A model generated the notes under the pieces. The model was given only the letters and a program-made list of their open reading frames with translations. It searched no databases and had not been told where the DNA came from. The position numbers and the translations under genes are program-made. From positions 1-33,385 of the forward strand of contig JAITBA010000081.1 in NCBI GenBank assembly GCA_031283835.1: a DNA stretch of 33,385 bases, read 5' to 3'. Positions within the stretch are counted from its first letter, which is position 1; each line of letters starts with the position of its first letter. The DNA comes from Oscillospiraceae bacterium. Its GTDB lineage: Bacteria; Bacillota; Clostridia; Oscillospirales; Acutalibacteraceae. This document shows positions 17,790-29,976 of this stretch, in pieces.

Positions 17790-18121
17790 GGCGCGCCCTC
17801 CGTCTTTTGTGTACGAAAACATCTCCTATAATATAGTATACCACGTTTTTTCTCGAAAAGCAAGCCCTTGCTGTCGAATTCCCGCGCTGCCCTTTTTGTC
17901 CAGCCCCGCCATCGCGTCCTTGCCGTGCTTGTCGGCTTTGTCTATCTCAATTTTAGCGGAAAATCCGTTGACGTTGGGCACGGAGAGCAGCCCGATGGCG
18001 GTGCTGTCGTCTGCCCTGCTTTTTTATACTGTTTTGCGAATAGAAACAACACTCCCCCCATCCCTGAACGCCTATACAAAAATTGCATGGGCGTATTTTT
18101 TTGAGAAAGGAATTGAAAACA

Positions 18122-18706
18122 ATGACAAAATTTGCCTATGTACGCATCTCAACGGCAGAACAGAACGAACTGAGACAGGTTATCGCCATGGAGGACCTCA
18201 AAATCCCAAAAGAAAACATCTACATGGATAAGTTGTCGGGCAAAAACACCGCGCGTCCGGGTTTGCAAAAACTTTTAGCCACCGTAAAGCAGGGCGACGT
18301 CATCTATGTTGAATCCTTCAGCCGCTTTGCCCGCAATACAAGGGATTTATTAGATCTTGTGGAACAACTCTCCGAAATGGGCGTGGGATTTGTGAGCCTG
18401 AAAGAAAAAATCGACACAGGCACACCCACGGGCAAGTTTATGCTGACCGTGTTTGCGGGCATCGCCGAACTCGAGCGGGCTTTCATTTTGCAGCGTTCAA
18501 GGGAGGGCATTGAAGCGGCAAGACGCGCGGGCAAACACCTCGGCAGACCAGTAAAAAACGCCCCCGATGACTTTGACACGCTGGTCAAAGACTGGGAGCG
18601 CAAGGTGATTCCACTGTCAAAAGTCCTCGAACAGTGCGGCAGCATCAGCGAGAGCACCTTCTACCGAAGACGCCGGGAACACCGCATTATCAAAGGAAAA
18701 AAATAA
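18122..18706 (+). CDS. Small serine recombinase (resolvase/invertase family: catalytic domain + C-terminal HTH)
   Basis: Begins MTKFAYVRISTAEQNELRQ with the catalytic Ser in the YVRIST motif. Has the resolvase-type core (GDVIYVESFSRFARNTRDLLDLVEQL, GVGFVSL) and a C-terminal HTH. About 195 aa, a size typical of Hin/Gin/Fim-type invertases. Its stop lies 8 bp from the left inverted repeat. Confidence 0.88.
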   Translation: MTKFAYVRISTAEQNELRQVIAMEDLKIPKENIYMDKLSGKNTARPGLQKLLATVKQGDVIYVESFSRFARNTRDLLDLVEQLSEMGVGFVSLKEKIDTGTPTGKFMLTVFAGIAELERAFILQRSREGIEAARRAGKHLGRPVKNAPDDFDTLVKDWERKVIPLSKVLEQCGSISESTFYRRRREHRIIKGKK

Positions 18707-18713
18707 AGAAAAC

Positions 18714-18740
18714 TGTCAAAAGGCATACCTTTTGAGAGCG
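18714..18740. repeat. Left inverted repeat of the putative invertible segment (27 bp)
   Basis: Exact reverse complement of 18869-18895. Confidence 0.8.
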
Positions 18741-18794
18741 GTCGGGGTTGAAGAAAATTATTGAAAAATTCATAGATTGTCTTCAATTTTGCTG

Positions 18795-18823
18795 TTGCAT
18801 TTTTCGATAAAATGTGTTAAAAT
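18795..18823 (+). promoter_or_regulatory. Sigma-A type promoter inside the invertible segment, currently oriented toward the downstream island operon
   Basis: TTGCAT at 18795-18800, 17-nt spacer, TAAAAT at 18818-18823. The first downstream gene starts at 18949. Confidence 0.55.
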
Positions 18824-18868
18824 AGACAAGTTATTAGGGTTTTGGTTCGAAAACGCCCGAAATTTGCT

Positions 18869-18895
18869 CGCTCTCAAAAGGTATGCCTTTTGACA
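18869..18895. repeat. Right inverted repeat of the putative invertible segment (27 bp)
   Basis: Exact reverse complement of 18714-18740. Confidence 0.8.
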
Positions 18896-18948
18896 ATTTG
18901 CAGTAGACAGGTACAATCCAAATAAATGGGCTAACGGGGTGAATTTGT

Positions 18949-20121
18949 ATGGCGATAATCAACAGGATCAAATATGATGGAAATGCCGATGGTTCTTCGT
19001 GGCTGGTGCATAAGTATCCCTCAGAGAGCTTTGTTCTTGGTTCTCAATTGATTGTCAACCAAGGGCAAGAGGCGTTGTTTCTCAAAGGCGGCGCGGCTCT
19101 CGACCTGTTTTCTGCGGGTACGCACACGCTAGCAACAGGCAATCTTCCCCTGCTAAACAAATTGGTCAACCTTCCCTTTGGCGGCAAAACCCCTTTTGCC
19201 GCCGAGGTTTACTATGTCAACAAAACAGCACGTTTGGATTTGGGCTGGGGAACAAGCAATCCCATAGACTTTGAAGACCCGAAATATCATATTTTCTTAA
19301 ATGTAAGGATCAACGGTCAGTTTGGTATCACCATCAACGATACACGGCTCTTTATCTCGCGTATCATCGGCGCGGTTCCAAACGGCTCTGTTTCGAACTA
19401 CCTTGTTATCTTAAAATATTTTAACGGCGTTATTAACACGAAAGTCAAGTCAATCGTAGCAAAATTCATGCTGGAAAAGAATATCTCGTTTCTTGAAATA
19501 TCAGCGCATCTTGATGATTTATCAGGCGTGTGCCAGTCGGCTATTAGTGAAGAATTTGAGCGGTTTGGCGTTGAGATAGTAAACTTCTTTGTGGAAACCA
19601 TTAAACCGCGCGAGGAAGATCTCGAGGCGATGAAAAAGAAACGCGAGGAAGTTTCCGCAATGAAGCTCGAATTGGGTGAGCTTGGGCGTGACTTCTACGC
19701 ACAAAGACGCTCGTTTGATGTAATGGAAGAAATGGCGGGCACCCCTGGATCCGGCGAATTGGCGAATGCGGGAATCGGTCTTGGAATAGGGCTTGGCGCG
19801 GCGGGTCAAATGGGCGGTGCGTTTGCCGGAATAGCGCAAAACATCAATCTCAACCCGCAACCTCCAGCTTCGGGTGGGGCGCTTAAATGCACAAAATGCG
19901 GCGCAGGTAATCCTCCGGGTCAAAAATTCTGTGGTACATGCGGTGAAAAGATTGAGCTTGGAATTAAATGCGCAGACTGCGGTGCTGTCGTTCCGCCGGG
20001 GCAAAAATTTTGCGGAGAGTGCGGAAAACCGATAGCTAATATTAAATGTCCGGCTTGCGGCGTCGAAAATGCGCCCACTCAAAAATTCTGCGGCGGATGC
20101 GGCAATAAATTGGGAGGTTAA
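18949..20121 (+). CDS. SPFH/band-7 (stomatin/prohibitin-like) domain protein with three C-terminal zinc-ribbon modules and a Gly-rich linker
   Basis: The N-terminal ~260 aa look SPFH-like (COG4260-type architecture). A Gly-rich low-complexity linker (GIGLGIGLGAAGQMGGAFAG) follows. Three CxxCG...QKFCGxCG zinc-ribbon repeats are at the C-terminus. The gene is AT-rich relative to the backbone. Confidence 0.75.
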   Translation: MAIINRIKYDGNADGSSWLVHKYPSESFVLGSQLIVNQGQEALFLKGGAALDLFSAGTHTLATGNLPLLNKLVNLPFGGKTPFAAEVYYVNKTARLDLGWGTSNPIDFEDPKYHIFLNVRINGQFGITINDTRLFISRIIGAVPNGSVSNYLVILKYFNGVINTKVKSIVAKFMLEKNISFLEISAHLDDLSGVCQSAISEEFERFGVEIVNFFVETIKPREEDLEAMKKKREEVSAMKLELGELGRDFYAQRRSFDVMEEMAGTPGSGELANAGIGLGIGLGAAGQMGGAFAGIAQNINLNPQPPASGGALKCTKCGAGNPPGQKFCGTCGEKIELGIKCADCGAVVPPGQKFCGECGKPIANIKCPACGVENAPTQKFCGGCGNKLGG

Positions 20122-20124
20122 GAA

Positions 20125-20730
20125 GTGGCAACATTAAAGGTTTCTGTTTTAGAATGTCCGCAATGCGGCGCTCCCGTCAAACCGGGAAGCAAAACCTGTG
20201 ATAGATGTTACTCTGAGTACATCGTCACGTCCGTCAGTAGCTTGAAAAAGTTTGACAGCTCCGGCATCAAGAAATATCTTGACGGCTACAAAAAGAATGT
20301 GGGGCTTGGCTGCGAAAGCGCCGAACTCTACACAGCAATGGGCATATGCCATCTAACGCGAAAGGTTTACCCTCACGCAATTAATTATTTTGAAAAGGCA
20401 ATTGCCTTGCTGCCAGAGGACGGCGACACGTATTATTATGCGGCGGTCGCTTTGCTGGAGGGGAAAAAGGCGTTTCTGACGAACAGGCCGGTTATTGATA
20501 AAATCGAAACATATCTGGCGAACGCACTGGGATTGGATGATAAGCCTGAATACTATGCTCTCTATGCGTACATAAAGTACGATTACTTTTTCAGAAAATC
20601 ATTCAACACATCGCCAACATACCGTGAGCTTCTTGTCGAGGCAATCAACCACGGGTTCAACCGCTTTGAATCCGATGCCTTATACGAAACGCTTTCGGTT
20701 GCTTGTCCAGGCCCGCTTGTGGTCCGCTAA
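20125..20730 (+). CDS. Hypothetical protein with an N-terminal Zn-ribbon (CPQCG...CDRC) and a helical, TPR-like C-terminal region
   Basis: GTG start 4 nt after the upstream stop, with RBS GGGAGG 7 nt upstream. Has a CxxC-x13-CxxC ribbon and a helical repeat region rich in Tyr/Ala/Leu. Confidence 0.55.
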   Translation: MATLKVSVLECPQCGAPVKPGSKTCDRCYSEYIVTSVSSLKKFDSSGIKKYLDGYKKNVGLGCESAELYTAMGICHLTRKVYPHAINYFEKAIALLPEDGDTYYYAAVALLEGKKAFLTNRPVIDKIETYLANALGLDDKPEYYALYAYIKYDYFFRKSFNTSPTYRELLVEAINHGFNRFESDALYETLSVACPGPLVVR

Positions 20731-21000
20731 CATTATGTTTTCCCCATCAAAAAACCCGTGCATGTTTCGTGTTCCAATGTTGGGTTTTGGGGTTACACAT
20801 CGGAGCACAACGATGTTTTGAGGGAGGAGCGTTGAATGTCTATGGAAAATATTTGGCGTGGCAGCGGATAAATTTTTCCATGAATGGGTTTCGGCATCCT
20901 ATTGTTAAAATGCCGCAAAAGGTTCGTACAAATGCCGCTCGGTAATGAACCTTAAAATCTCTTGAGCGGCAAATCAAAAATTTTTGGGAGGAATTTTTTT

Positions 21001-21579
21001 ATGGCACAGACATCAACCACGGAACAACAACAGCGGTTATCGCAAATAAACTCACTTAAAACGGTAGCGAATGCAGAGCAGAAAATTGTAATTAATTATT
21101 TCACACAGTCTTGCTTCGGACCGAAGGATGAGAAATTCGACCAGGTTGTGAGCTCCTTGCGTTCGCGCCTGAATACTCGCCAAATGGCACTTAACAAAAT
21201 TGGCTTGGATGAAGATCAGTTAAAAGAAATTCCAGATATCTGCTTTGAAGGTTTCCAAACTGACACATGGAATAACGGAAAAATTGAAGGTTTTAGTAAA
21301 GCGGGCGCAGATACGCGTTGGCGTTCAGGCAAGTACGCTATAACGCACTTGTTTTTCTCACCTACGCAAGTTTATATGTATAAATACGAATTTTCTCTTT
21401 ATAGCAACGACAGGAAAGAGCGTACAGAAGAGTATTTTTATAGAGACATCACAAACTTCTCTACCTCCGACGAAACCGTTAATGCATATAACCCAAACTG
21501 CATAGGCGGTGTTAAGGTGGTTCCAGTTAGTACGCAGAGGTTTGAGTTGATTGTTCCGGGCGACCGTAATGAATATTGA
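21001..21579 (+). CDS. Hypothetical protein; paralog of the gene at 22192 (unknown family)
   Basis: RBS GGGAGG 9 nt upstream of the ATG at 21001. It shares the N-proximal segment QKIVINYFTQSCFG (QKKVIKYFNSTGLLG in the paralog) and a C-proximal block THLFFSPTQVYMYKYEF...EYFYRDITN with the 22192 gene. Confidence 0.55.
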   Translation: MAQTSTTEQQQRLSQINSLKTVANAEQKIVINYFTQSCFGPKDEKFDQVVSSLRSRLNTRQMALNKIGLDEDQLKEIPDICFEGFQTDTWNNGKIEGFSKAGADTRWRSGKYAITHLFFSPTQVYMYKYEFSLYSNDRKERTEEYFYRDITNFSTSDETVNAYNPNCIGGVKVVPVSTQRFELIVPGDRNEY

Positions 21580-21623
21580 ACAGAGCGTACGGGCGATGAA
21601 GGCAAAACTCCGCGAGAAGAAGA

Positions 21624-22115
21624 ATGCCTAAACGGAACAGGCAGGACAGCACGACCATATGGGATATTCTTGACAATCCTGCTGTTTGTGACGAAGAAAG
21701 CAGGGAACTTATCAGACCCGTGATTAAAATTAAAACGGTTATTATTTCTGTATTCGTTTGTTTGGTGATTACGGGTCTGATTTCTTTCGCACTCTCCTGC
21801 ATTGTTTGCGCTGTTTTAAAAAGCAAACAAGTAACGACGGTGGATGTGCATAGTGTTCTATTCATTTGCTTGTTGACCTGTTACATTCTTCTGTTCTTGC
21901 TGAGCCTAAGAAGAATCATGATTTTTTTCGTTATGCTTTATCAAGCTAAGGCAAGTGACCAAACCCGTTTAAGATGTGTTTTTGTCCCCAGTTGCTCTGA
22001 GTATATGATTTTGTCTCTAAAAAAATATGGGGCTATTGTTGGTCTCATCAAGGGGATTGGAAGATTACATCGTTGCAGAAATTCATACGGCATTGGCGGC
22101 GAGGACTATCCATAA
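21624..22115 (+). CDS. Membrane protein with a C-terminal YidD-like domain (membrane protein insertion efficiency factor family) and a two-TM N-terminal extension
   Basis: The C-terminal ~65 aa (MIFFVMLYQAKASDQTRLRCVFVPSCSEYMILSLKKYGAIVGLIKGIGRLHRCRNSYGIGGEDYP) match the YidD signature (FYQ...C-x-F-x-P-[ST]-C-S-x-Y ... RL-x-RC-x-P-x-GG-x-D-P). The N-terminal ~95 aa form two hydrophobic helices. An internal ATG at 21918 would yield a YidD-only 65-aa product, so the start is ambiguous. Confidence 0.55.
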   Translation: MPKRNRQDSTTIWDILDNPAVCDEESRELIRPVIKIKTVIISVFVCLVITGLISFALSCIVCAVLKSKQVTTVDVHSVLFICLLTCYILLFLLSLRRIMIFFVMLYQAKASDQTRLRCVFVPSCSEYMILSLKKYGAIVGLIKGIGRLHRCRNSYGIGGEDYP

Positions 22116-22191
22116 AACGAGGTTTTTCAATGGGTTTAGGCGTTGTCCCAAAATCAATGTCAAAAAGCAATAATTTAATGGAGGTAATATT

Positions 22192-22974
22192 ATGTTTCGT
22201 GCACTAAAAAGCAACGGCAATAAAGACTTTGCAAATAGCATAAGAGTTGGTACCGGCTTCATAGGGATGCGCGGCAGAACAAGCGAGCAAAAGAAAGTCA
22301 TCAAATACTTTAACAGCACAGGGCTTTTGGGCGCGATTTTCGGAATATCCAATGCCACGTTTGATGCGATTTTAGGTAACAAAATAAACGCTTGCAGGCA
22401 ATGGATTAACGCGCGGGCATTAAATGTGCATGGTATGGATGCTGACGAAGTCAAGGAAACTACCCCTATTCTTGTTGAAAACTATGCCTCTGAAAGCCGT
22501 TTTTTCAAAATATTCAATGACCGTACATTCCGCACCTCTGAATATCAGGTGACTTATTTGTTGTTTGGCGAAAAACAGATGTATGTGTATAGTCATACTT
22601 TCGACCTGACCAGCGAAAACACTACCGAACATACGAGAGAATATTTCTATGAGGATATAACCAACGTGGATGTCACTCAAAAGAAAATTGAATTTCCAAA
22701 TCCGCGTCCATTGCGGTATCTTTTGGGCGGAATTGGTTGTATTGTGCTCGGTGCATTGTTGGCACTTATCCCATTTATCGGCGTTCTCTTTGCCGTGTGC
22801 GGTCTTGTCGCAGGAATTATCGTAATGTTTTTCTTAGGTTATTCCCGGAGTGTAGTAGATAATTTGGTTTTGAGGCTGACCGTATCCGGCGATGAGTTTA
22901 TCTGTGCTATGAAGCCCGAAAACATGGCTGCGATACAGGGAATGAAAGCGAAAATCAGGGAAAAGAAAAAATAA
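22192..22974 (+). CDS. Hypothetical membrane-anchored protein; paralog of the 21001 gene with an added C-terminal TM helix
   Basis: RBS GGAGGT 8 nt upstream. It shares the EYFYEDITN block with the 21001 gene and has a hydrophobic segment LRYLLGGIGCIVLGALLALIPFIGVLFAVCGLVAGIIVMFFLGY. Confidence 0.6.
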   Translation: MFRALKSNGNKDFANSIRVGTGFIGMRGRTSEQKKVIKYFNSTGLLGAIFGISNATFDAILGNKINACRQWINARALNVHGMDADEVKETTPILVENYASESRFFKIFNDRTFRTSEYQVTYLLFGEKQMYVYSHTFDLTSENTTEHTREYFYEDITNVDVTQKKIEFPNPRPLRYLLGGIGCIVLGALLALIPFIGVLFAVCGLVAGIIVMFFLGYSRSVVDNLVLRLTVSGDEFICAMKPENMAAIQGMKAKIREKKK

Positions 22975-23027
22975 CAATTCTCGTTGTCGCGTGAGGCTAA
23001 AATGCAGTTAGGGGGGAGCGTTTCATC

Positions 23028-26000
23028 ATGCCAGACATCAAAAATGGTGCGGCAACAGATTTCTTGGCCACGTTTTTCATCGAAAATCGTGCCATTACAA
23101 AAAAGTTGAGCGACGTAATAAAAAACAGAGAAAACAGCTTGTTCCGCTCCGCATTAGGTTTGTCGAACGATTTTGTGTTGCCGTTTCTCAGCGAAGAAAG
23201 TGCTAACGACACTCCCTCCATCACCTATTCCCTCCGCAGCACGTTAAATTCCGATTTTACCGCTTACATAAATGACGAGGCTCAAAACCACCATGTCATC
23301 GCAAGCGGCGACTATGTTGTTTTCAAAAACCAAAACGGCGATACTTATATTCGCGTTCTATTCCTTGGCACAAACGAGATAAAACTTGGATACAAAAAAT
23401 ATGCGCTGAATAAAGGCAAAAACCTTTTTATCGGTCGGCAACAAGACAATGACATTTCTTTCGATTTTAGCGACCGTATTTCCCGCGAAAAGCATATTGC
23501 TATCAGAATGGATGAAAACGGCGATGTTTTCGCAGAAGATTTGAAGCGCAGTATTGGCGTTTATGTGAACGGAAAACAGACCCATTCGCAAAAGCTTTCT
23601 TTATTTGATGAAGTCACCGTAATGGGACTTTCGCTTGTGTACCTCGGAGGTTGTGTTGCCGTTAGAGATTTCAAAATTTTAAGTAACTGTGTTCCTGTAA
23701 CTGAATTTTCAGCAAAAGCTCCCATTGAAAAAACAGAGGTCAAATACTTTGTCCGCAACCCGCGAATCCTCAAATCGCTTGATACCGACCCGGTAGAAAT
23801 AGACGCGCCGCCAAATCCTCCTTCTCAGGATAAAACCCCTGCCATTTTGGTTTTAGGGCCGAGCGTAACCATGTCTTTGGTTATGATGGCGAGCTTGGGC
23901 GTATCGCTTACAAACGCATTAAGCGGCGGTGATATGAGTACAATCATTACCAGCGGCGTGATGGCTGTCGGTATGCTGATTGGTTCTTTGCTGTGGCCTG
24001 CGCTGCTGCGCAGCTATCAAAAACGCGCTGTTATCGCCGAAGAAAAACACAGACGGAGCAGCTACACCGGGTACATTTCTGAAATTGACAAAAAGTTATA
24101 CGCTAAATCGGATAGAACCATTCGCGTGTTAAACGAAACCTTTTCCCCCACACCGGAACAGGAATTGAAATTGCTTGATAGCGAAAGCGGACGACTGCGC
24201 TTGTGGGAACGTTCATTTAGCGATGAAGATTTTCTAAGAGTCCGCTTGGGCTTGGGTCAAGGTGCTTTTGGCGTAAATATCGCGACTCCCAAAGTGGGGT
24301 TTCAATTGCATGAGGACGAATTACGCAAGTTACCTGTTCGGATTTCCGAAAAATATTCTGTATTATCAAATGTGCCCGTTACGCTTGATTTGAAAAGCAA
24401 TCGGGCAGTCGGTCTTATTGGCTCTGCCGCAAATATTCACAACATCATCAACGAAATCATATTGAACTTGATTTCCCTCCATTCATATGATGAAGTCAAG
24501 TTAGCGATTGTTTGTTCCGAAAAGGAATCATCCCAATTTATCCATCTGCGAAACATCCCGCATATTTGGAGCGATGATAAAAAAATCAGATACTTCGCCA
24601 CAAACAATGATGAAGTCCACTATGTTTTCAACGCGATTGACGACATAGTAAAAGAACGCGAAAAAACACAAGAAAGAAAAACAACAACTCCCGGCAAGCC
24701 TCATTTTGTTTTGGTCATAACCGATGGTGCTTTGATTGAAGGCGAACCGTTGTTACGATATATTGAAAACCCTGATAACGCCGTAGGCATTACCTCTCTA
24801 TTTTCGTACGGAGATATTTCCAAGCTGCCGAAAGCCTGTAAGGCAATTATACAAAGCGACAATAGCAGAAGCGGTTATTATGCTAAAAATGAGAATAATA
24901 ATCGGTTTATCGAATTTGTGCCGGACACCTTGCAAGGTTCGGACATTAGCCGATTTGCAAGACGATTAGCGGCTCTTCCCGTTAAAGTCGATGCCCATGC
25001 TTTAGGTGTACCCGAAAGAATTACTTTCCTTCAAACTTTCAAAGCGGGCAACGTGGATGAGCTTGCAATAGAGAAGCATTGGAATAACAACAATTCAGCC
25101 AAATCGCTTTCTGCTCAAATTGGCGTTATGGCAGGCGGCAACCCTTTTTCGCTCGACATTCACGAAGCGTATCACGGATGTCATGGTCTGGTCGCAGGGA
25201 CGACTGGTTCCGGCAAGAGTGAATTTTTGCAAGCATTTGTTCTATCTTTGGCAATCAACTACAGCCCAAAAGAAATCGCCTTTGTGTTGGTGGATTTTAA
25301 GGGTGGCGATATGGCTCGTCCTTTTATGGAAAAGAAAAATGAAAACGGAGATGTTGTCAAACACGCTTTGCCGCATTTGGCGGCTATCATATCCAATCTT
25401 TCAGGGAATTTGCTATATAGGGCGTTGGTTTCTTTTAACGCTGAAATTAAATATAGACAAACGCTGTTCAATAAAGCCGCCGCCGCACTTGGCGTAGATA
25501 AATTGGACATCAATTCCTATCACAAATATTACAAAGCTGGCAAGCTGTCCGTGCCTTTGCCCCATTTGGTTATTATCATAGACGAGTTTGCCCAGCTCAA
25601 AACACAACAGCCCGATTTTTTGGCAGAGCTTATCAATGTTGCGCAAGTCGGTCGTAGCCTTGGTATTCACCTCATATTGGCTACCCAAAAGCCAAGCGGC
25701 GTTGTCGATCCACAGATTTGGAGCAACTCCCGTTTCAAAGTTTGCCTAAAAGTTGCGGACAAACAGGACAGCATTGACATGATAAACAAACCCGATTCCG
25801 CGCTTATTAAGAATCCGGGCAGATGCTATGTGCAAGTAGGCTATGATGAAGTATACGAATGTGTTCAATCGGGATATAGCGGAGCGGATTATGTGCCGAC
25901 AAAAACTTATTTGCCCGATGACGAGATAACGGTTCAAATGACCGACAGCACTGCAACACCCATTCATAGCGCAAAAATAGATTTTTCCGCAAACAAAACC

Positions 26001-27698
26001 GACAAGACCCAGCTTGAAGCGGTCGTTGCAAGCCTCATCACTCTCGGTACGGACAAAAACCTGTTTGTTAAGCCGTTGTGGAAAGATATGCTGCCGGAAC
26101 GCATTGCCCTTGACAGCTTGCAAACCGAAGCGAAAACCATACTCAAAGCAACCGTCGCGCTGACTGATTTCGTGCGCGTTCAAGAACAAAGACCGTTAGC
26201 GATTGATTTTGCCCAAACAGGACATTTGGGCATTTATGGGGCAAGCGGGACCGGAAAAACGACTTTCTTACAAACGCTGATCTATTCGCTCGTATGCGAC
26301 TATTCCTATACACCTGATGAGCTTACCATTTACGCTATGGATTTTGGCGGTCGCAGTCTTGGATATTTGAACGCCTTGCCTCACGTTGGTGATGTTGTGT
26401 TTGAGGACAACGAAGGCAAAATCGCCGCCCTTGCTGATACGCTGCAATCGATAATTGACGAAAGAAAACGCATTTTTGCGGCGAGCAATTGCGGAACATT
26501 TGTAGATTACCACGCAACAGGGAAACAGCGCATCCCGGCGGTTTTGGTGTTGATTGACAATTTCGCGCCTTTCCATGAAAAACACATGGATTTATCAGAG
26601 CGGTTTTTTGGGATCATCAGTGCAGGTAAAACGTACGGTGTTTATTTTGTGATTACCGGGAATACTCGCAATGCGATTTATTATAAGGTCGCCGAACACA
26701 TCTCCACATATTTCATGCTAAAAATGAACGACCCCGGCAACTATTTTGATGTTCTCAACCTTCGTCCTCCCATTACGCCGGAAGATATAAAGGGGCGCGG
26801 GATAACCGTTATTGACAAGGAGGTCGTTGAGTTTCAAGTTGCGTTGGCGCTTGACGGCGAATCAGAATCAGAGCGCGTCACTTTGATGTATGATACATAT
26901 GTCCAAATTGCTGAGGGCTGGACCGGAACAGTACCTCTCGCTCTTGCCGATGATTTTGTCGGCAGCGATGAGGATTATTCGGAAACATCAACGATTAGCT
27001 ATACATATACGATAAAAACTACGCCACCCGATATTGTCAGCGATGACGGCAACACTCTTGTACTTGGCAAATCCCCTACCGGGGCATCGCTTTACGGCAT
27101 AAACTTGGAAGACCATTTTAAATGCGTTGTTTGCGCTAACGAAAATGAATCGTTGAACAATTATTACAAAAAGCTAACTGCGTGGATATTGAAACACGAA
27201 AATCGAAAGGTGTTCTTCGTTGACGATGCAAGCGGGGTATTTTCTGACATAACTTCCGTCGGTGGTGTCCGTTATATTCGAGGTTCCGATGAGCTGGATG
27301 CATTGCTTGCATTATTAAAGCCGGAGTTAAATTCCCGGTTAGATGATGATTCCGCTGGCTTCGGTGAGATATTTATAATCCTTTCAGATTTTGGCGCATT
27401 CTTTGATATGTTATCCGATGAGCAAGCCGATGTGATGCGGAAAATCACTCGTTACATAGACTTGCCAAAATATAAAATGTGTTTTATCTGTGGCTTCAAC
27501 GTGCAGAATGATTTAGGCGAAAAGAGCAATGACCGATTGTTCACAGACTTAATTGTAAATGCAGTTAATTATGTCGTGTTCCCAAAGAGTTACGATGAAT
27601 CCCGCAGTAAAATTGAGAATTTCCCGCTCATTCACGATGTAAAAAACGCAGAAATATATTTTTGCCAAGAAGATAAAAACACAAAGATAAGGTGGTGA
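23028..27698 (+). CDS. essC: EssC/YukB-like type VII secretion FtsK/SpoIIIE-family ATPase (N-terminal FHA region, TM helices, three P-loop ATPase modules)
   Basis: 1556 aa. FHA-like region (LFIGRQQDNDISFDFSDRISREKHIAIRMDENGDVFAEDLKRSIGVYVNG). Two TM helices (ILVLGPSVTMSLVMMASLGV, IITSGVMAVGMLIGSLLWPALL). Walker A motifs GLVAGTTGSGKSEFLQ and GIYGASGTGKTTFLQ, plus a degenerate third module. Walker B-like IIIDEFAQL. Confidence 0.85.
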   Translation: MPDIKNGAATDFLATFFIENRAITKKLSDVIKNRENSLFRSALGLSNDFVLPFLSEESANDTPSITYSLRSTLNSDFTAYINDEAQNHHVIASGDYVVFKNQNGDTYIRVLFLGTNEIKLGYKKYALNKGKNLFIGRQQDNDISFDFSDRISREKHIAIRMDENGDVFAEDLKRSIGVYVNGKQTHSQKLSLFDEVTVMGLSLVYLGGCVAVRDFKILSNCVPVTEFSAKAPIEKTEVKYFVRNPRILKSLDTDPVEIDAPPNPPSQDKTPAILVLGPSVTMSLVMMASLGVSLTNALSGGDMSTIITSGVMAVGMLIGSLLWPALLRSYQKRAVIAEEKHRRSSYTGYISEIDKKLYAKSDRTIRVLNETFSPTPEQELKLLDSESGRLRLWERSFSDEDFLRVRLGLGQGAFGVNIATPKVGFQLHEDELRKLPVRISEKYSVLSNVPVTLDLKSNRAVGLIGSAANIHNIINEIILNLISLHSYDEVKLAIVCSEKESSQFIHLRNIPHIWSDDKKIRYFATNNDEVHYVFNAIDDIVKEREKTQERKTTTPGKPHFVLVITDGALIEGEPLLRYIENPDNAVGITSLFSYGDISKLPKACKAIIQSDNSRSGYYAKNENNNRFIEFVPDTLQGSDISRFARRLAALPVKVDAHALGVPERITFLQTFKAGNVDELAIEKHWNNNNSAKSLSAQIGVMAGGNPFSLDIHEAYHGCHGLVAGTTGSGKSEFLQAFVLSLAINYSPKEIAFVLVDFKGGDMARPFMEKKNENGDVVKHALPHLAAIISNLSGNLLYRALVSFNAEIKYRQTLFNKAAAALGVDKLDINSYHKYYKAGKLSVPLPHLVIIIDEFAQLKTQQPDFLAELINVAQVGRSLGIHLILATQKPSGVVDPQIWSNSRFKVCLKVADKQDSIDMINKPDSALIKNPGRCYVQVGYDEVYECVQSGYSGADYVPTKTYLPDDEITVQMTDSTATPIHSAKIDFSANKTDKTQLEAVVASLITLGTDKNLFVKPLWKDMLPERIALDSLQTEAKTILKATVALTDFVRVQEQRPLAIDFAQTGHLGIYGASGTGKTTFLQTLIYSLVCDYSYTPDELTIYAMDFGGRSLGYLNALPHVGDVVFEDNEGKIAALADTLQSIIDERKRIFAASNCGTFVDYHATGKQRIPAVLVLIDNFAPFHEKHMDLSERFFGIISAGKTYGVYFVITGNTRNAIYYKVAEHISTYFMLKMNDPGNYFDVLNLRPPITPEDIKGRGITVIDKEVVEFQVALALDGESESERVTLMYDTYVQIAEGWTGTVPLALADDFVGSDEDYSETSTISYTYTIKTTPPDIVSDDGNTLVLGKSPTGASLYGINLEDHFKCVVCANENESLNNYYKKLTAWILKHENRKVFFVDDASGVFSDITSVGGVRYIRGSDELDALLALLKPELNSRLDDDSAGFGEIFIILSDFGAFFDMLSDEQADVMRKITRYIDLPKYKMCFICGFNVQNDLGEKSNDRLFTDLIVNAVNYVVFPKSYDESRSKIENFPLIHDVKNAEIYFCQEDKNTKIRW

Positions 27699-27703
27699 AA
27701 CCA

Positions 27704-27952
27704 ATGGGGAAAATACCTGTTACAGTAAACATTCCGGCAATCAGCCAAAACCATGATTTTCTAATCCCTGCGACTATGGCGGTTCGCGATGTTGTCCAAC
27801 TGATGGTAAATATCTTGGTTTCAGAGTATGGTGTTTCCAACGTCCTTTCCAATATATCCTTGCTTGATGAAAGCGATGGAAAGGCGTTGAGAACAGATTG
27901 TAGTTTCCAGCAACTTGGCGTTACAGCCGGTGCGAAGCTAATACTAATCTAA
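27704..27952 (+). CDS. esaB: YukD/EsaB-like ubiquitin-fold T7SS accessory protein
   Basis: 82 aa, with its ATG 6 nt after the EssC stop. The N-terminal beta-strand pattern IPVTVNIP...FLIPATMAV and the C-terminal GVTAGAKLILI resemble B. subtilis YukD (…CGITNGDRLEIM). Confidence 0.65.
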   Translation: MGKIPVTVNIPAISQNHDFLIPATMAVRDVVQLMVNILVSEYGVSNVLSNISLLDESDGKALRTDCSFQQLGVTAGAKLILI

Positions 27953-27973
27953 GGAGGAAGGAGGCATGTTGAA

Positions 27974-28279
27974 ATGGGATTCAGGATAAATCACTCAAAG
28001 GTCATTTCACAGGCAAATTCCATTGCCGATGATGCTGACAGACTTGGTTCGCAGGTCAATCAGCTAACGGCAATGGAGCAGGATGTTCGCATGGCTTGGA
28101 AAGGGCAAGCCGCGGACACGTTTCTTAAAAGGCTTGCCACGCTGAAAGGTGAGATAAGCCGAACAAAGCAACAAATGGCTAATCTGGCTTCAACCATAAG
28201 GTATTGTGCCGATAGGATTCAGCGCGAAGACGAAGAAGCTGAAAGACGCGCCGCCGCCCTGAAAACCTCTGGCAATTAG
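27974..28279 (+). CDS. esxA: WXG100-family (EsxA/ESAT-6-like) small secreted protein
   Basis: 101 aa and predicted helical hairpin. The central W-x-G motif is MAWKGQAADTF. RBS AAGGAGGAAGGAGG upstream. Its stop TAG overlaps the first bases of MITE copy B. Confidence 0.75.
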   Translation: MGFRINHSKVISQANSIADDADRLGSQVNQLTAMEQDVRMAWKGQAADTFLKRLATLKGEISRTKQQMANLASTIRYCADRIQREDEEAERRAAALKTSGN

Positions 28280-28440
28280 GGCGTGTTGACACTATCCGAA
28301 ATGTCCAGATTTTGAGCGGATTTTTTGTCGGGCAAGGCAATTTTTTTGCAGTCATACTTTCGTATTACAAAAAAAATAACGCAGAACGGCGGAAAATCCG
28401 CCAGAAGATGGGCGTTGAGCGTTAGTGTCAACACGCCCTA
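28277..28440. mobile_element. MITE-like miniature inverted-repeat element, copy B (same orientation as copy A)
   Basis: About 98% identical to 12855-13018 (3 substitutions). Has the same 18-bp terminal inverted repeats and is flanked by TA on both sides. Confidence 0.6.
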
Positions 28441-28461
28441 ATAGCCCTCCTCAAAAACGCC

Positions 28462-29504: not shown

Positions 29505-29556
29505 CGCGCGCGGTTCTTCAAAAAAAACATATTTGACCAACGAAAGGGCGGCGCGC

Positions 29557-29976
29557 ATGGCCGATTTATTCATCGAAATCAACCGCTTTGCGCTGCCTGC
29601 GCTGGGTGTGCTGGTGGTTGTGCTGTGCACGGTGTGCCTGCTGCGCCGCGGCAAAACCAAACCACCCGAAGTTTATTTGCTCAATGCGGTGAACCACGAC
29701 AAACACCCGCTGCCTCGGTTCGAAAACTCCATCGGCCGCCGCCACAACTGCGATGTGGTGCTCAACTACCCCTCCGTTTCACGCCTGCACGCGGTCATTG
29801 CGCGCCGCCGCGAAGGCTGGGTGCTCATGGATACCGGTTCCCAGTATGGCACAAAGCTCGACGGCCTGCCCGTGAAGGATCGTGCGCCGCTTTCTCACGG
29901 CCAATGCATCACCTTTGGCGGCAGCGAGTTCATTTTTTGCGACCCCGAAGAAGAACGCCTAACCCTAAAATATTAG
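29557..29976 (+). CDS. FHA-domain protein with an N-terminal membrane anchor
   Basis: TM segment FALPALGVLVVVLCTVCLL followed by an FHA domain (IGRRHNCDVVLNYPSVSRLHAVIARRREGWVLMDTGSQYGTKLDG). The first ATG is at 29557; the track start is a TTG. Confidence 0.7.
   Translation: MADLFIEINRFALPALGVLVVVLCTVCLLRRGKTKPPEVYLLNAVNHDKHPLPRFENSIGRRHNCDVVLNYPSVSRLHAVIARRREGWVLMDTGSQYGTKLDGLPVKDRAPLSHGQCITFGGSEFIFCDPEEERLTLKY

Follow-up and report, generated by a model that had tools for sequence, protein, structure and literature searches.

A predicted membrane-anchored YidD-family protein and its conserved gene module on a mobile island of an Oscillospiraceae genome

YidD proteins are nearly universal in bacteria and their function is barely understood; in E. 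coli and many other bacteria, though not universally, the gene often lies in an rpmH-rnpA-yidD-yidC cluster. On contig JAITBA010000081.1 of an Oscillospiraceae metagenome-assembled genome (MAG; GCA_031283835.1), a YidD-type gene of double the canonical length is found beside genes of a type VII secretion system (T7SS), which raises the question of what kind of YidD this is and what it serves there. The window analysed here is that complete contig, 33,385 bp long, and the gene is designated yidDx. An earlier interpretation of the letters alone (the sequence-only reading) had taken the product for a YidD-like protein with a novel extension. The annotation of the gene as YidD was already known; new are the anchored subfamily to which it belongs and the conserved module of genes in which it is found. 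The parts of the protein are as follows.

21624 to 22115, plus strand: YidDx, putative membrane-anchored YidD-family protein of 163 residues (intact open reading frame, PF01809, TIGR00278, AlphaFold2 model).
21624 to 21728, plus strand: cytoplasmic N-terminal tail, residues 1-35, predicted to be disordered, with the motif WDILDxPxV...RxLIRPVI (AlphaFold2, alignment).
21729 to 21914, plus strand: predicted transmembrane (TM) hairpin, comprising helix 36-67 (TM1), loop 68-74 and helix 75-109, the first part of which (75-97) is TM2 (AlphaFold2, hydrophobicity).
21912 to 22100, plus strand: YidD domain, residues 97-159, with C118, C124 and C151 invariant across the subfamily (Pfam and NCBIfam profiles, alignment).

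The reading frame from 21624 to 22115 opens with ATG and is unbroken, with no internal stop or frameshift between the hydrophobic part and the YidD segment. The YidD-like domain that the sequence-only reading had recognised is borne out by Pfam PF01809, which matches residues 97-159 (E 6.9e-16; 58.2 bits against a gathering score of 27), and by NCBIfam TIGR00278, which matches residues 96-155 (52.7 bits against a cut-off of 40). YidD was the sole family matched in Pfam and NCBIfam, with no membership of EssA, EssB/YukC, EsaA or EsaB/YukD. The hallmark Cys-x-Phe-x-Pro-Ser-Cys-Ser-x-Tyr is present as had been quoted, beginning at C118 (CVFVPSCSEY), but the second motif had been misspaced as RC-x-x-x-GG-x-D-P: in YidDx it is RC-x6-GG-E-D-Y-P, and in the subfamily consensus RC-x4-GG-x-DYP, the clade of YidDx having a two-residue insertion at this point. 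In an alignment of 63 sequences, C118, C124, C151, P122, S125, Y127 and D161 are invariant, and G158 and G159 nearly so (at least 90%). At 163 residues the protein lies outside the size typical of stand-alone YidD (about 65-90 residues, a family habit and no formal criterion), and it is named plain "YidD" by NCBI, whose PGAP pipeline labels its extended relatives alike. Neither RNase P protein (rnpA) nor YidC/Oxa1 was found among the main open reading frames scanned on the 33-kb contig, and neighbour clustering placed none of 82 related loci in a context of the rpmH-rnpA-yidD-yidC type. By profile and motifs, YidDx is a member of the YidD family, atypical in size, anchoring and context.

The extension measures about 96 residues. 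Some 38 hydrophilic ones come first, and then two segments of strong hydrophobicity (39-57 and 77-95), with values of 2.81 and 2.66. The earlier description of a hydrophobic, two-TM extension of about 95 residues is thus right as to the two segments and the long form, and wrong as to the hydrophilic beginning. An AlphaFold2 model (mean predicted local distance difference test score, pLDDT, 81.8; below 50 for residues 4-22) gives a disordered tail, a helix at 36-67, a short loop and a helix at 75-109 that is continuous with the YidD core. Two strongly hydrophobic segments of TM grade recur in 61 of 62 family members, in which lysine plus arginine density is 3.3 per 12 residues ahead of TM1 as against 1.7 in the loop of about 18 residues. 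With basic residues densest before TM1, the distribution fits an N-in/C-in topology with a cytoplasmic YidD domain, which would be held at the inner face of the membrane. R31-P32 of the tail (21714-21719) is invariant in the 63 sequences, and an RPxI motif followed by the TM hairpin is common to all extended forms, whichever of the two gene contexts described below they occupy.

The extension, which had been supposed novel, is not unique to this locus. Ten full-length relatives at 37-68% identity share the length and architecture of YidDx, and a profile search returned 1,941 clusters at E<=1e-10, the best 120 of which are all 136-187 residues long. A library of 1.84 billion representatives yielded 7,994 proteins of the YidD family as a whole at E<=1e-3, and an extended profile at E<=1e-30 was matched by only 123 of these 7,994. 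As judged from these searches, the anchored form is a minor yet genuine branch of the YidD family, and the extension marks a large subfamily, mostly of Clostridia, which is hidden in databases under plain "YidD".

It was also considered whether translation begins at the upstream ATG at all. A purine-rich stretch precedes the internal ATG at 21918 (Met99), much like that before 21624, and short forms of YidD in other genomes begin at the same point, so that a product of canonical size, 65 residues, might be made from 21918, the upstream frame not being translated with it. The sequence-only reading had left both starts open. Met99, however, is replaced by L, F and L in the closest relatives. Moreover, in codon comparisons with three relatives, where synonymous sites were unsaturated, the ratio of non-synonymous to synonymous substitution (dN/dS) is 0.22-0.44 over codons 1-96, as against 0.04-0.07 in the YidD domain, which indicates that the extension is constrained protein-coding sequence, under looser purifying selection than the domain, and both R31/P32 and the two TM segments are conserved family-wide. 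The ATG at 21624 also stands at a conserved junction: the stop of the gene immediately upstream, here called X, which encodes a PH-like protein, overlaps the yidDx ATG by 8-11 nt in three related loci (L001, L085 and L086), and the window retains this junction as ATGCCTAA. Short subfamily members of 67-72 residues start exactly past TM2 and align solely to residues ~93-163, thereby marking the boundary of the extension. A short product alone is hardly credible on this evidence, and the product is, by the same comparisons, the full-length 163-residue protein translated from 21624.

The company kept by such genes was surveyed by scanning one genome per GTDB species, which gave 282 relatives with the subfamily motif PSCSEYMI; 80 loci were fetched, and 82 non-redundant loci were tabulated with hidden Markov models built from seed sequences. 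A homologue of X lies directly upstream of yidDx in 54 of the 82. Among these 54 X-bearing loci, 48 have a gene for TPRz, a protein with an N-terminal zinc ribbon and a TPR region, and 28 have a gene for an SPFH protein, which is followed in 19 by a gene for a protein of about 225 residues with four TM segments (p225). An FtsK/HerA ATPase is encoded in 22, and in 17 loci there is a DUF87/HerA-type ATPase of about 900 residues (HerA900). Where the flanks were long (at least 5 kb upstream and 8 kb downstream; 24 of the 54 loci), SPFH was found in 20 and an FtsK/HerA ATPase in 11. EssC was encoded within the fetched flanks of five of the 54, and of none of the 28 other loci with an extended YidD.

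The module can also be seen in a cultured species. In Bacteroides finegoldii, genes for X, YidD (141 residues), SPFH (Band_7_1 plus GYF_2), a 251-residue protein and a Zn-ribbon/TPR protein are consecutive, in permuted order and with no ATPase nearby. The neighbour counts and this locus together identify a five-gene module as the conserved unit and EssC as an occasional addition. On the comparative evidence, the module, made up of TPRz, the PH-like X, the anchored YidD, an anchorless SPFH protein of SamI type and a 4-TM protein, is conserved and horizontally mobile; it is widespread and was previously undescribed.

Two observations on these loci may be added. The B. finegoldii record with the full five-gene module (L087; NZ_OY725907.1, 'plasmid 5') is labelled a 108-kb non-mobilizable plasmid and carries the housekeeping genes rny, obgE, adk, hpt and dinB; it is probably a chromosomal fragment, and this record, chromosomal in appearance, was the single one returned by a search of plasmids for the cassette. 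The C-terminal module of the SPFH protein varies while its Band_7_1 core is kept, with double zinc ribbons in the window (18949-20121), SHOCT in L001 (10232-11383) and GYF_2 in L087 (10080-11300).

These counts bear directly on the function that the sequence-only reading had proposed, namely that the island brings its own YidD-type insertion helper for EssC and its other membrane proteins. Such a helper would suit the window and one related locus (L038), where yidDx and essC share an operon, and the island does encode further membrane proteins, a second X paralogue (X2) and EssC. An insertion role is implied by the family name and by cross-linking data from E. coli, for which a table in the review PMC8082313 cites Yu et al. 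2011 in connection with YidD and membrane protein insertion. Against it, co-occurrence of YidD-like with EssC-like genes, which had been offered as a check on the proposal, is confined to the five loci counted above; HerA900, the commonest ATPase partner, has no TM segment, and the invariant neighbours X, TPRz and SPFH are soluble. With EssC a minority neighbour and the commonest ATPase partner soluble, this reading is unlikely, and it would not be the most economical account of the comparative data. Since the module only sometimes adjoins EssC, YidDx appears to be a dedicated subunit of the module and no private helper of EssC.

The reading preferred here is that YidDx would be an integral-membrane tether or assembly subunit of the mobile module. 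Its tail and YidD domain would dock the soluble X and TPRz at the membrane, and these in turn the anchorless SPFH protein; the conserved motif in the disordered tail is, as a conjecture, a plausible docking peptide for the TPR protein. The resulting SPFH-scaffolded platform may help to assemble or organise the membrane part of an attached FtsK/HerA export machinery, with the YidD domain either acting on membrane proteins during their synthesis, the role suggested for its E. coli counterpart, or simply docking. A parallel is available in Bacillus subtilis, where SamI (YdjI), an anchorless SPFH protein with a C-terminal zinc finger that is linked to membrane stress, depends on two membrane proteins encoded with it, SamG and SamH, to reach the membrane (PMC8581546; bioRxiv 10.64898/2026.02.06.704340). 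The PspA-SamGHI (YdjGHI) system and the present module have in common an anchorless Band_7_1 SPFH protein with a C-terminal zinc finger, membrane partners encoded alongside and zinc-ribbon partners. A YidD domain is unreported in the Sam system.

That parallel could equally be taken further, to a module for membrane homeostasis with no role in secretion, in which TPRz, X, YidDx, SPFH and p225 form a SamGHI-like stress or quality-control unit and the ATPases and toxins merely co-travel. SPFH is the most constant distal partner (20 of 24 long-flank loci, against 11 of 24 for the ATPases), and many loci, that of B. finegoldii included, hold the five genes alone; in B. subtilis the SamI-type architecture goes with the sensing of membrane stress, and the idea fits known links of SPFH proteins to membrane-protein quality control. 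Nevertheless, the genes for ATPases and toxins interrupt the operon itself, lying between yidDx and the SPFH gene, where neighbouring genes overlap or are very closely spaced, and two unrelated types of ATPase, EssC and HerA900, both associate with the module. A PspA-like gene was not seen in the island either, none of the island proteins scanned matching the PspA family. Homeostasis without secretion is the main alternative, if an improbable one.

Several points weigh against the tether and platform proposed here. That the tail and YidD domain dock partners is inferred purely from architecture and the order of genes. No export ATPase lies within 8-10 kb in about half of the module loci with long flanks, so that the link to export may be facultative, or a mere by-product of the mosaicism of the islands. 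The anchor is not specific to the module, because a second group of about 25 loci with an extended YidD has a different partner, DUF4177, and no module genes. In the window, with one X gene (X1) frameshifted and p225 absent, the module may be degenerate or differently composed. Finally, as cited in the table of PMC8082313, the canonical role of YidD rests on a single E. coli study. The structural and genomic parts of the reading are highly probable; to the whole of it, YidDx as a tether or assembly subunit of an SPFH-scaffolded platform that couples to FtsK/HerA export ATPases, we would give a probability of about 0.45.

What such a platform might export is suggested by the operons of HerA type. 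HerA900 has HerA as its nearest solved relative; the possibility that it is a shortened EssC was rejected, since BLASTP likeness is confined to the level of the P-loop. Between the HerA900 and SPFH genes lie genes for proteins that end in a toxin domain (WHH/colicin-DNase, glutamine deamidase, ADP-ribosyltransferase and metallopeptidase-like), most of them followed by immunity-sized genes; that after the L001 toxin encodes a SUKH protein. The toxins have an N-terminus of MGDEF type and then hundreds of residues of D/E-rich repeats. Proteins whose first 120 residues are at least 40% D/E were found seven times in the 54 X-bearing loci, always with HerA900, and in none of the 28 loci without X, which served as controls. 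The acidic proteins recorded in the related loci are these.

L001, 8658-9794: acidic toxin with a nuclease domain (Pfam).
L011, 13178-16105: acidic toxin with a nuclease domain (Pfam).
L020, 13244-16252: acidic protein with no Pfam match.
L021, 12488-14029: acidic toxin with an ADP-ribosyltransferase domain (Pfam).
L037, 5329-8109: acidic protein with no Pfam match.
L045, 13326-14666: acidic toxin with a deamidase domain (Pfam).
L046, 14246-17680: acidic protein with no Pfam match.
L056, 16279-17853: acidic toxin with a metallopeptidase-like domain (Pfam).

The window itself contains no acidic toxin of the MGDEF type. These operons resemble polymorphic toxin systems in holding modular toxins followed by immunity-type genes, and they differ from LXG/WXG polymorphic toxins in the MGDEF-type N-terminus with its D/E repeats and in having a soluble HerA-like ATPase in the place of EssC. 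The acidic toxins may be a new trafficking class tied to this soluble ATPase of about 900 residues. It is a further and rather doubtful step to see in the module the membrane platform of an undescribed export route in gut Firmicutes, in which the HerA-type ATPase would export MGDEF-type, hyper-acidic toxins, or which would alternatively dock a minimal EssC-WXG100 set, as in the window. The survey of polymorphic toxins by Zhang et al. 2012 (PMC3482391) describes no such export route and does not mention YidD, and searches of the accessible literature gave no relevant link between YidD and T7SS, SPFH proteins or polymorphic toxins.

The same ATPases and toxins could suggest an anti-phage defence or abortive-infection cassette, as defence systems often employ HerA-family ATPases and effectors of the nuclease or ADP-ribosyltransferase type and the island is mobile and bears a recombinase. 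In PADLOC-DB 2.0, EssC and HerA900 do match HerA/mad8 models, at the generic level of the ATPase only, and no match was obtained for SPFH, TPRz, X1, YidDx, X2, p225 or DUF4177. SUKH and other immunity-sized neighbours together with polymorphic C-termini form the pattern of interbacterial toxins, and no phage record carries X or the cassette. A defence function is very improbable on these grounds.

The 28 loci that lack X form the second gene context; EssC is missing from all of them, and the other module partners are almost entirely so. In 17 of them a DUF4177 gene adjoins yidDx, and three of these also have a Zn-ribbon/TPR gene. The DUF4177 gene was noted directly upstream of yidDx in L026, L031, L060, L064, L066, L068, L071, L081, L084 and others, and L040, L072 and L076 are listed in the same DUF4177-type group. 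A short YidD of 67 residues in a Chitinophagaceae MAG (L083) likewise follows a gene of the DUF4177 cluster. Taken together, the loci suggest a general link between YidD and DUF4177. Two identifications were tried for this group and rejected: X is not related to DUF4177 (hhalign probability 0.65%), and the small upstream open reading frame is not RnpA, which would have made this a housekeeping locus, as it matches DUF4177 at 25.8 bits against a cut-off of 25.

In the window, yidDx lies on an island of about 10.3 kb between cvpA and folB, where the G+C content falls to 41-48% (about 18,000-28,400) as against 55-66% in both flanks. The flanks are housekeeping in content, with cvpA on the left and folB, folK, proB and proA on the right. 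From the recombinase to the WXG100 gene the island genes are all on the plus strand and closely packed, with junctions along the operon of 4 nt, overlapping, 77 nt and 54 nt. They are listed below.

18083 to 18706, plus strand: small serine recombinase of resolvase/invertase type at the left end of the island (Pfam Resolvase, 138.7 bits).
18949 to 20121, plus strand: SamI/YdjI-type SPFH protein, Band_7_1 with C-terminal double zinc ribbons (Pfam Band_7_1, 131.6 bits; DZR, 74.9 bits).
20125 to 20730, plus strand: TPRz, N-terminal zinc ribbon (C..CG...C) and TPR (sub-threshold Pfam matches to DZR, Zn_ribbon and TPR; invariant cysteines in the alignment).
20962 to 21579, plus strand: X1, PH-like partner gene truncated by a 17-nt deletion (comparison with relatives).
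22192 to 22974, plus strand: X2, the second X paralogue, intact, 260 residues (helical N-terminus, PH-like beta-sandwich, TM hairpin).
23028 to 27698, plus strand: EssC, T7SSb ATPase of the FtsK/SpoIIIE family with an FHA domain and two TM segments (TIGR03928, 975.9 bits against 778.4; Pfam FtsK_SpoIIIE and FHA).
27692 to 27952, plus strand: YukD/EsaB-like small ubiquitin-fold protein, a weak match (Pfam YukD, 20.4 bits, below the cut-off of 27, over the full length).
27974 to 28279, plus strand: WXG100 protein (Pfam WXG100, 44.5 bits against 27.3).

The position of yidDx between a PH-like gene and essC, and the non-canonical context that had been claimed for it, in a tight string on one strand with EssC, a YukD-like gene and WXG100, are both confirmed. 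The SPFH stop lies 4 nt ahead of the TPRz start, and no hydrophobic or TM segment was found in the SPFH homologues of the related loci that were scanned, a set outside which the window copy falls. Compared with L086, X1 has lost 17 nt (TTCGGCTGCGAAACTCA) after GACCGT, and the resulting frameshift ends the protein at 21579. The ancestral tail of X1 (NIEQSVRAMKAKLREKKNA and its stop, the last ~17 codons) persists in the +1 frame at 21569-21631 and ends at a TAA that overlaps the yidDx ATG; the frameshift may be an assembly error or a real decay of the partner gene. The order X1, YidDx, X2 is kept in the close relatives L085 and L086, where X2 has 295 residues. In the window X2, the TM hairpin (residues 175-213) is inserted between strands of the PH-like domain, and X2 with its own hairpin is present instead of the 4-TM p225 gene, which is absent from the island. 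A recombinase homologue lies upstream of the cassette in L003, and the YukD-like protein of the window clusters with its positional counterparts in L038 and L042. As judged from composition and gene content, the cassette, a minimal EssC-YukD-WXG100 set and the serine recombinase are one low-GC, horizontally acquired island.

The housekeeping YidD of the lineage might simply have acquired an anchor, its neighbourhood being incidental. In favour of this may be set the NCBI/PGAP naming of such proteins as plain YidD and the finding that no extended form was seen in an rnpA/yidC context. The gene stands, however, in a low-GC island acquired horizontally, gene order is kept across families and phyla with the stop/start overlap with X, and of the 7,994 family representatives just 123 reach E<=1e-30 with the full extended profile, which together make this explanation quite improbable. 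Canonical YidD (E. coli, 85 residues; B. subtilis YtjA) has the same domain, with its Cys-x-Phe-x-Pro-Ser-Cys-Ser-x-Tyr and RC...GG.D.P motifs, likewise predicted to lie at the cytoplasmic side of the membrane; no structure has been solved for any YidD-family protein. In YidDx, by contrast, the length is doubled, the RPxI tail and TM hairpin replace peripheral association, and the gene lies away from rnpA and yidC, in a mobile-island operon with PH-like, TPR and SPFH proteins.

To our knowledge, YidD, X and TPRz are not components of any T7SS, and X1, X2 and TPRz match no T7SS family in Pfam or NCBIfam. The window does resemble T7SSb and the 'mobile T7SS' made up of a solo WXG protein and a YueA-like ATPase (PMC3482391), since its EssC, YukD-like and WXG100 genes lie on a mobile low-GC island; T7SS neighbourhoods are known to include PH-like accessory proteins, and X is PH-like too. 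It differs in that the EssA, EssB and EsaA families were not detected among the island genes, and the cassette is found far more often without EssC. In Staphylococcus aureus, the flotillin FloA, an SPFH scaffold, promotes T7SS assembly (PMC5718613), which is, beside SamG/SamH, a second precedent for the platform proposed here.

Repeats are present around the island. Between the recombinase stop and the first operon gene lies one candidate invertible element:

18710 to 18740 and 18869 to 18899, no strand assigned: 31-nt inverted repeat pair, 97% complementary, with arms 128 nt apart.

Each arm holds an internal dyad, TCAAAAGG-N4-CCTTTTGA. The arrangement looks like an invertase-controlled switch, but if a promoter were what is switched, inversion would not abolish a strong fixed promoter (TTGACA-16-TACAAT, 18890-18917), and the repeat has no counterpart in L003. 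A second inverted repeat, of 24 nt and 96% complementary (28271-28294 and 28423-28446), overlaps the WXG100 stop, and its arms are likewise exactly 128 nt apart; that the two enclosed segments are copies of one element was rejected, as they have no sequence similarity. A 12-nt direct repeat, GCGGAAAATCCG, occurs at 17956 and 28389, with a chance expectation of about 0.01. Just beyond the island, in the high-GC flank between folK and proB, 29533-29976 encodes a small FHA-domain protein with one N-terminal hydrophobic segment; EssC has an FHA domain too.

For the YidD family, the label "membrane protein insertion efficiency factor YidD" masks a distinct architecture and context. An anchored YidD whose operon also encodes a PH-like protein, a TPR adaptor and an SPFH scaffold offers the first concrete and testable partners for a YidD protein, and culturable carriers are available in B. 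finegoldii, Blautia hansenii, Faecalicatena contorta and Ruminococcus flavefaciens. The repeated pairing with EssC- or HerA-type ATPases and polymorphic toxins points to a possible, unexplored machinery of export or competition in gut Clostridia, which are abundant. If the export-platform reading is true, this would be the first defined machine-specific role for proteins of the YidD family.

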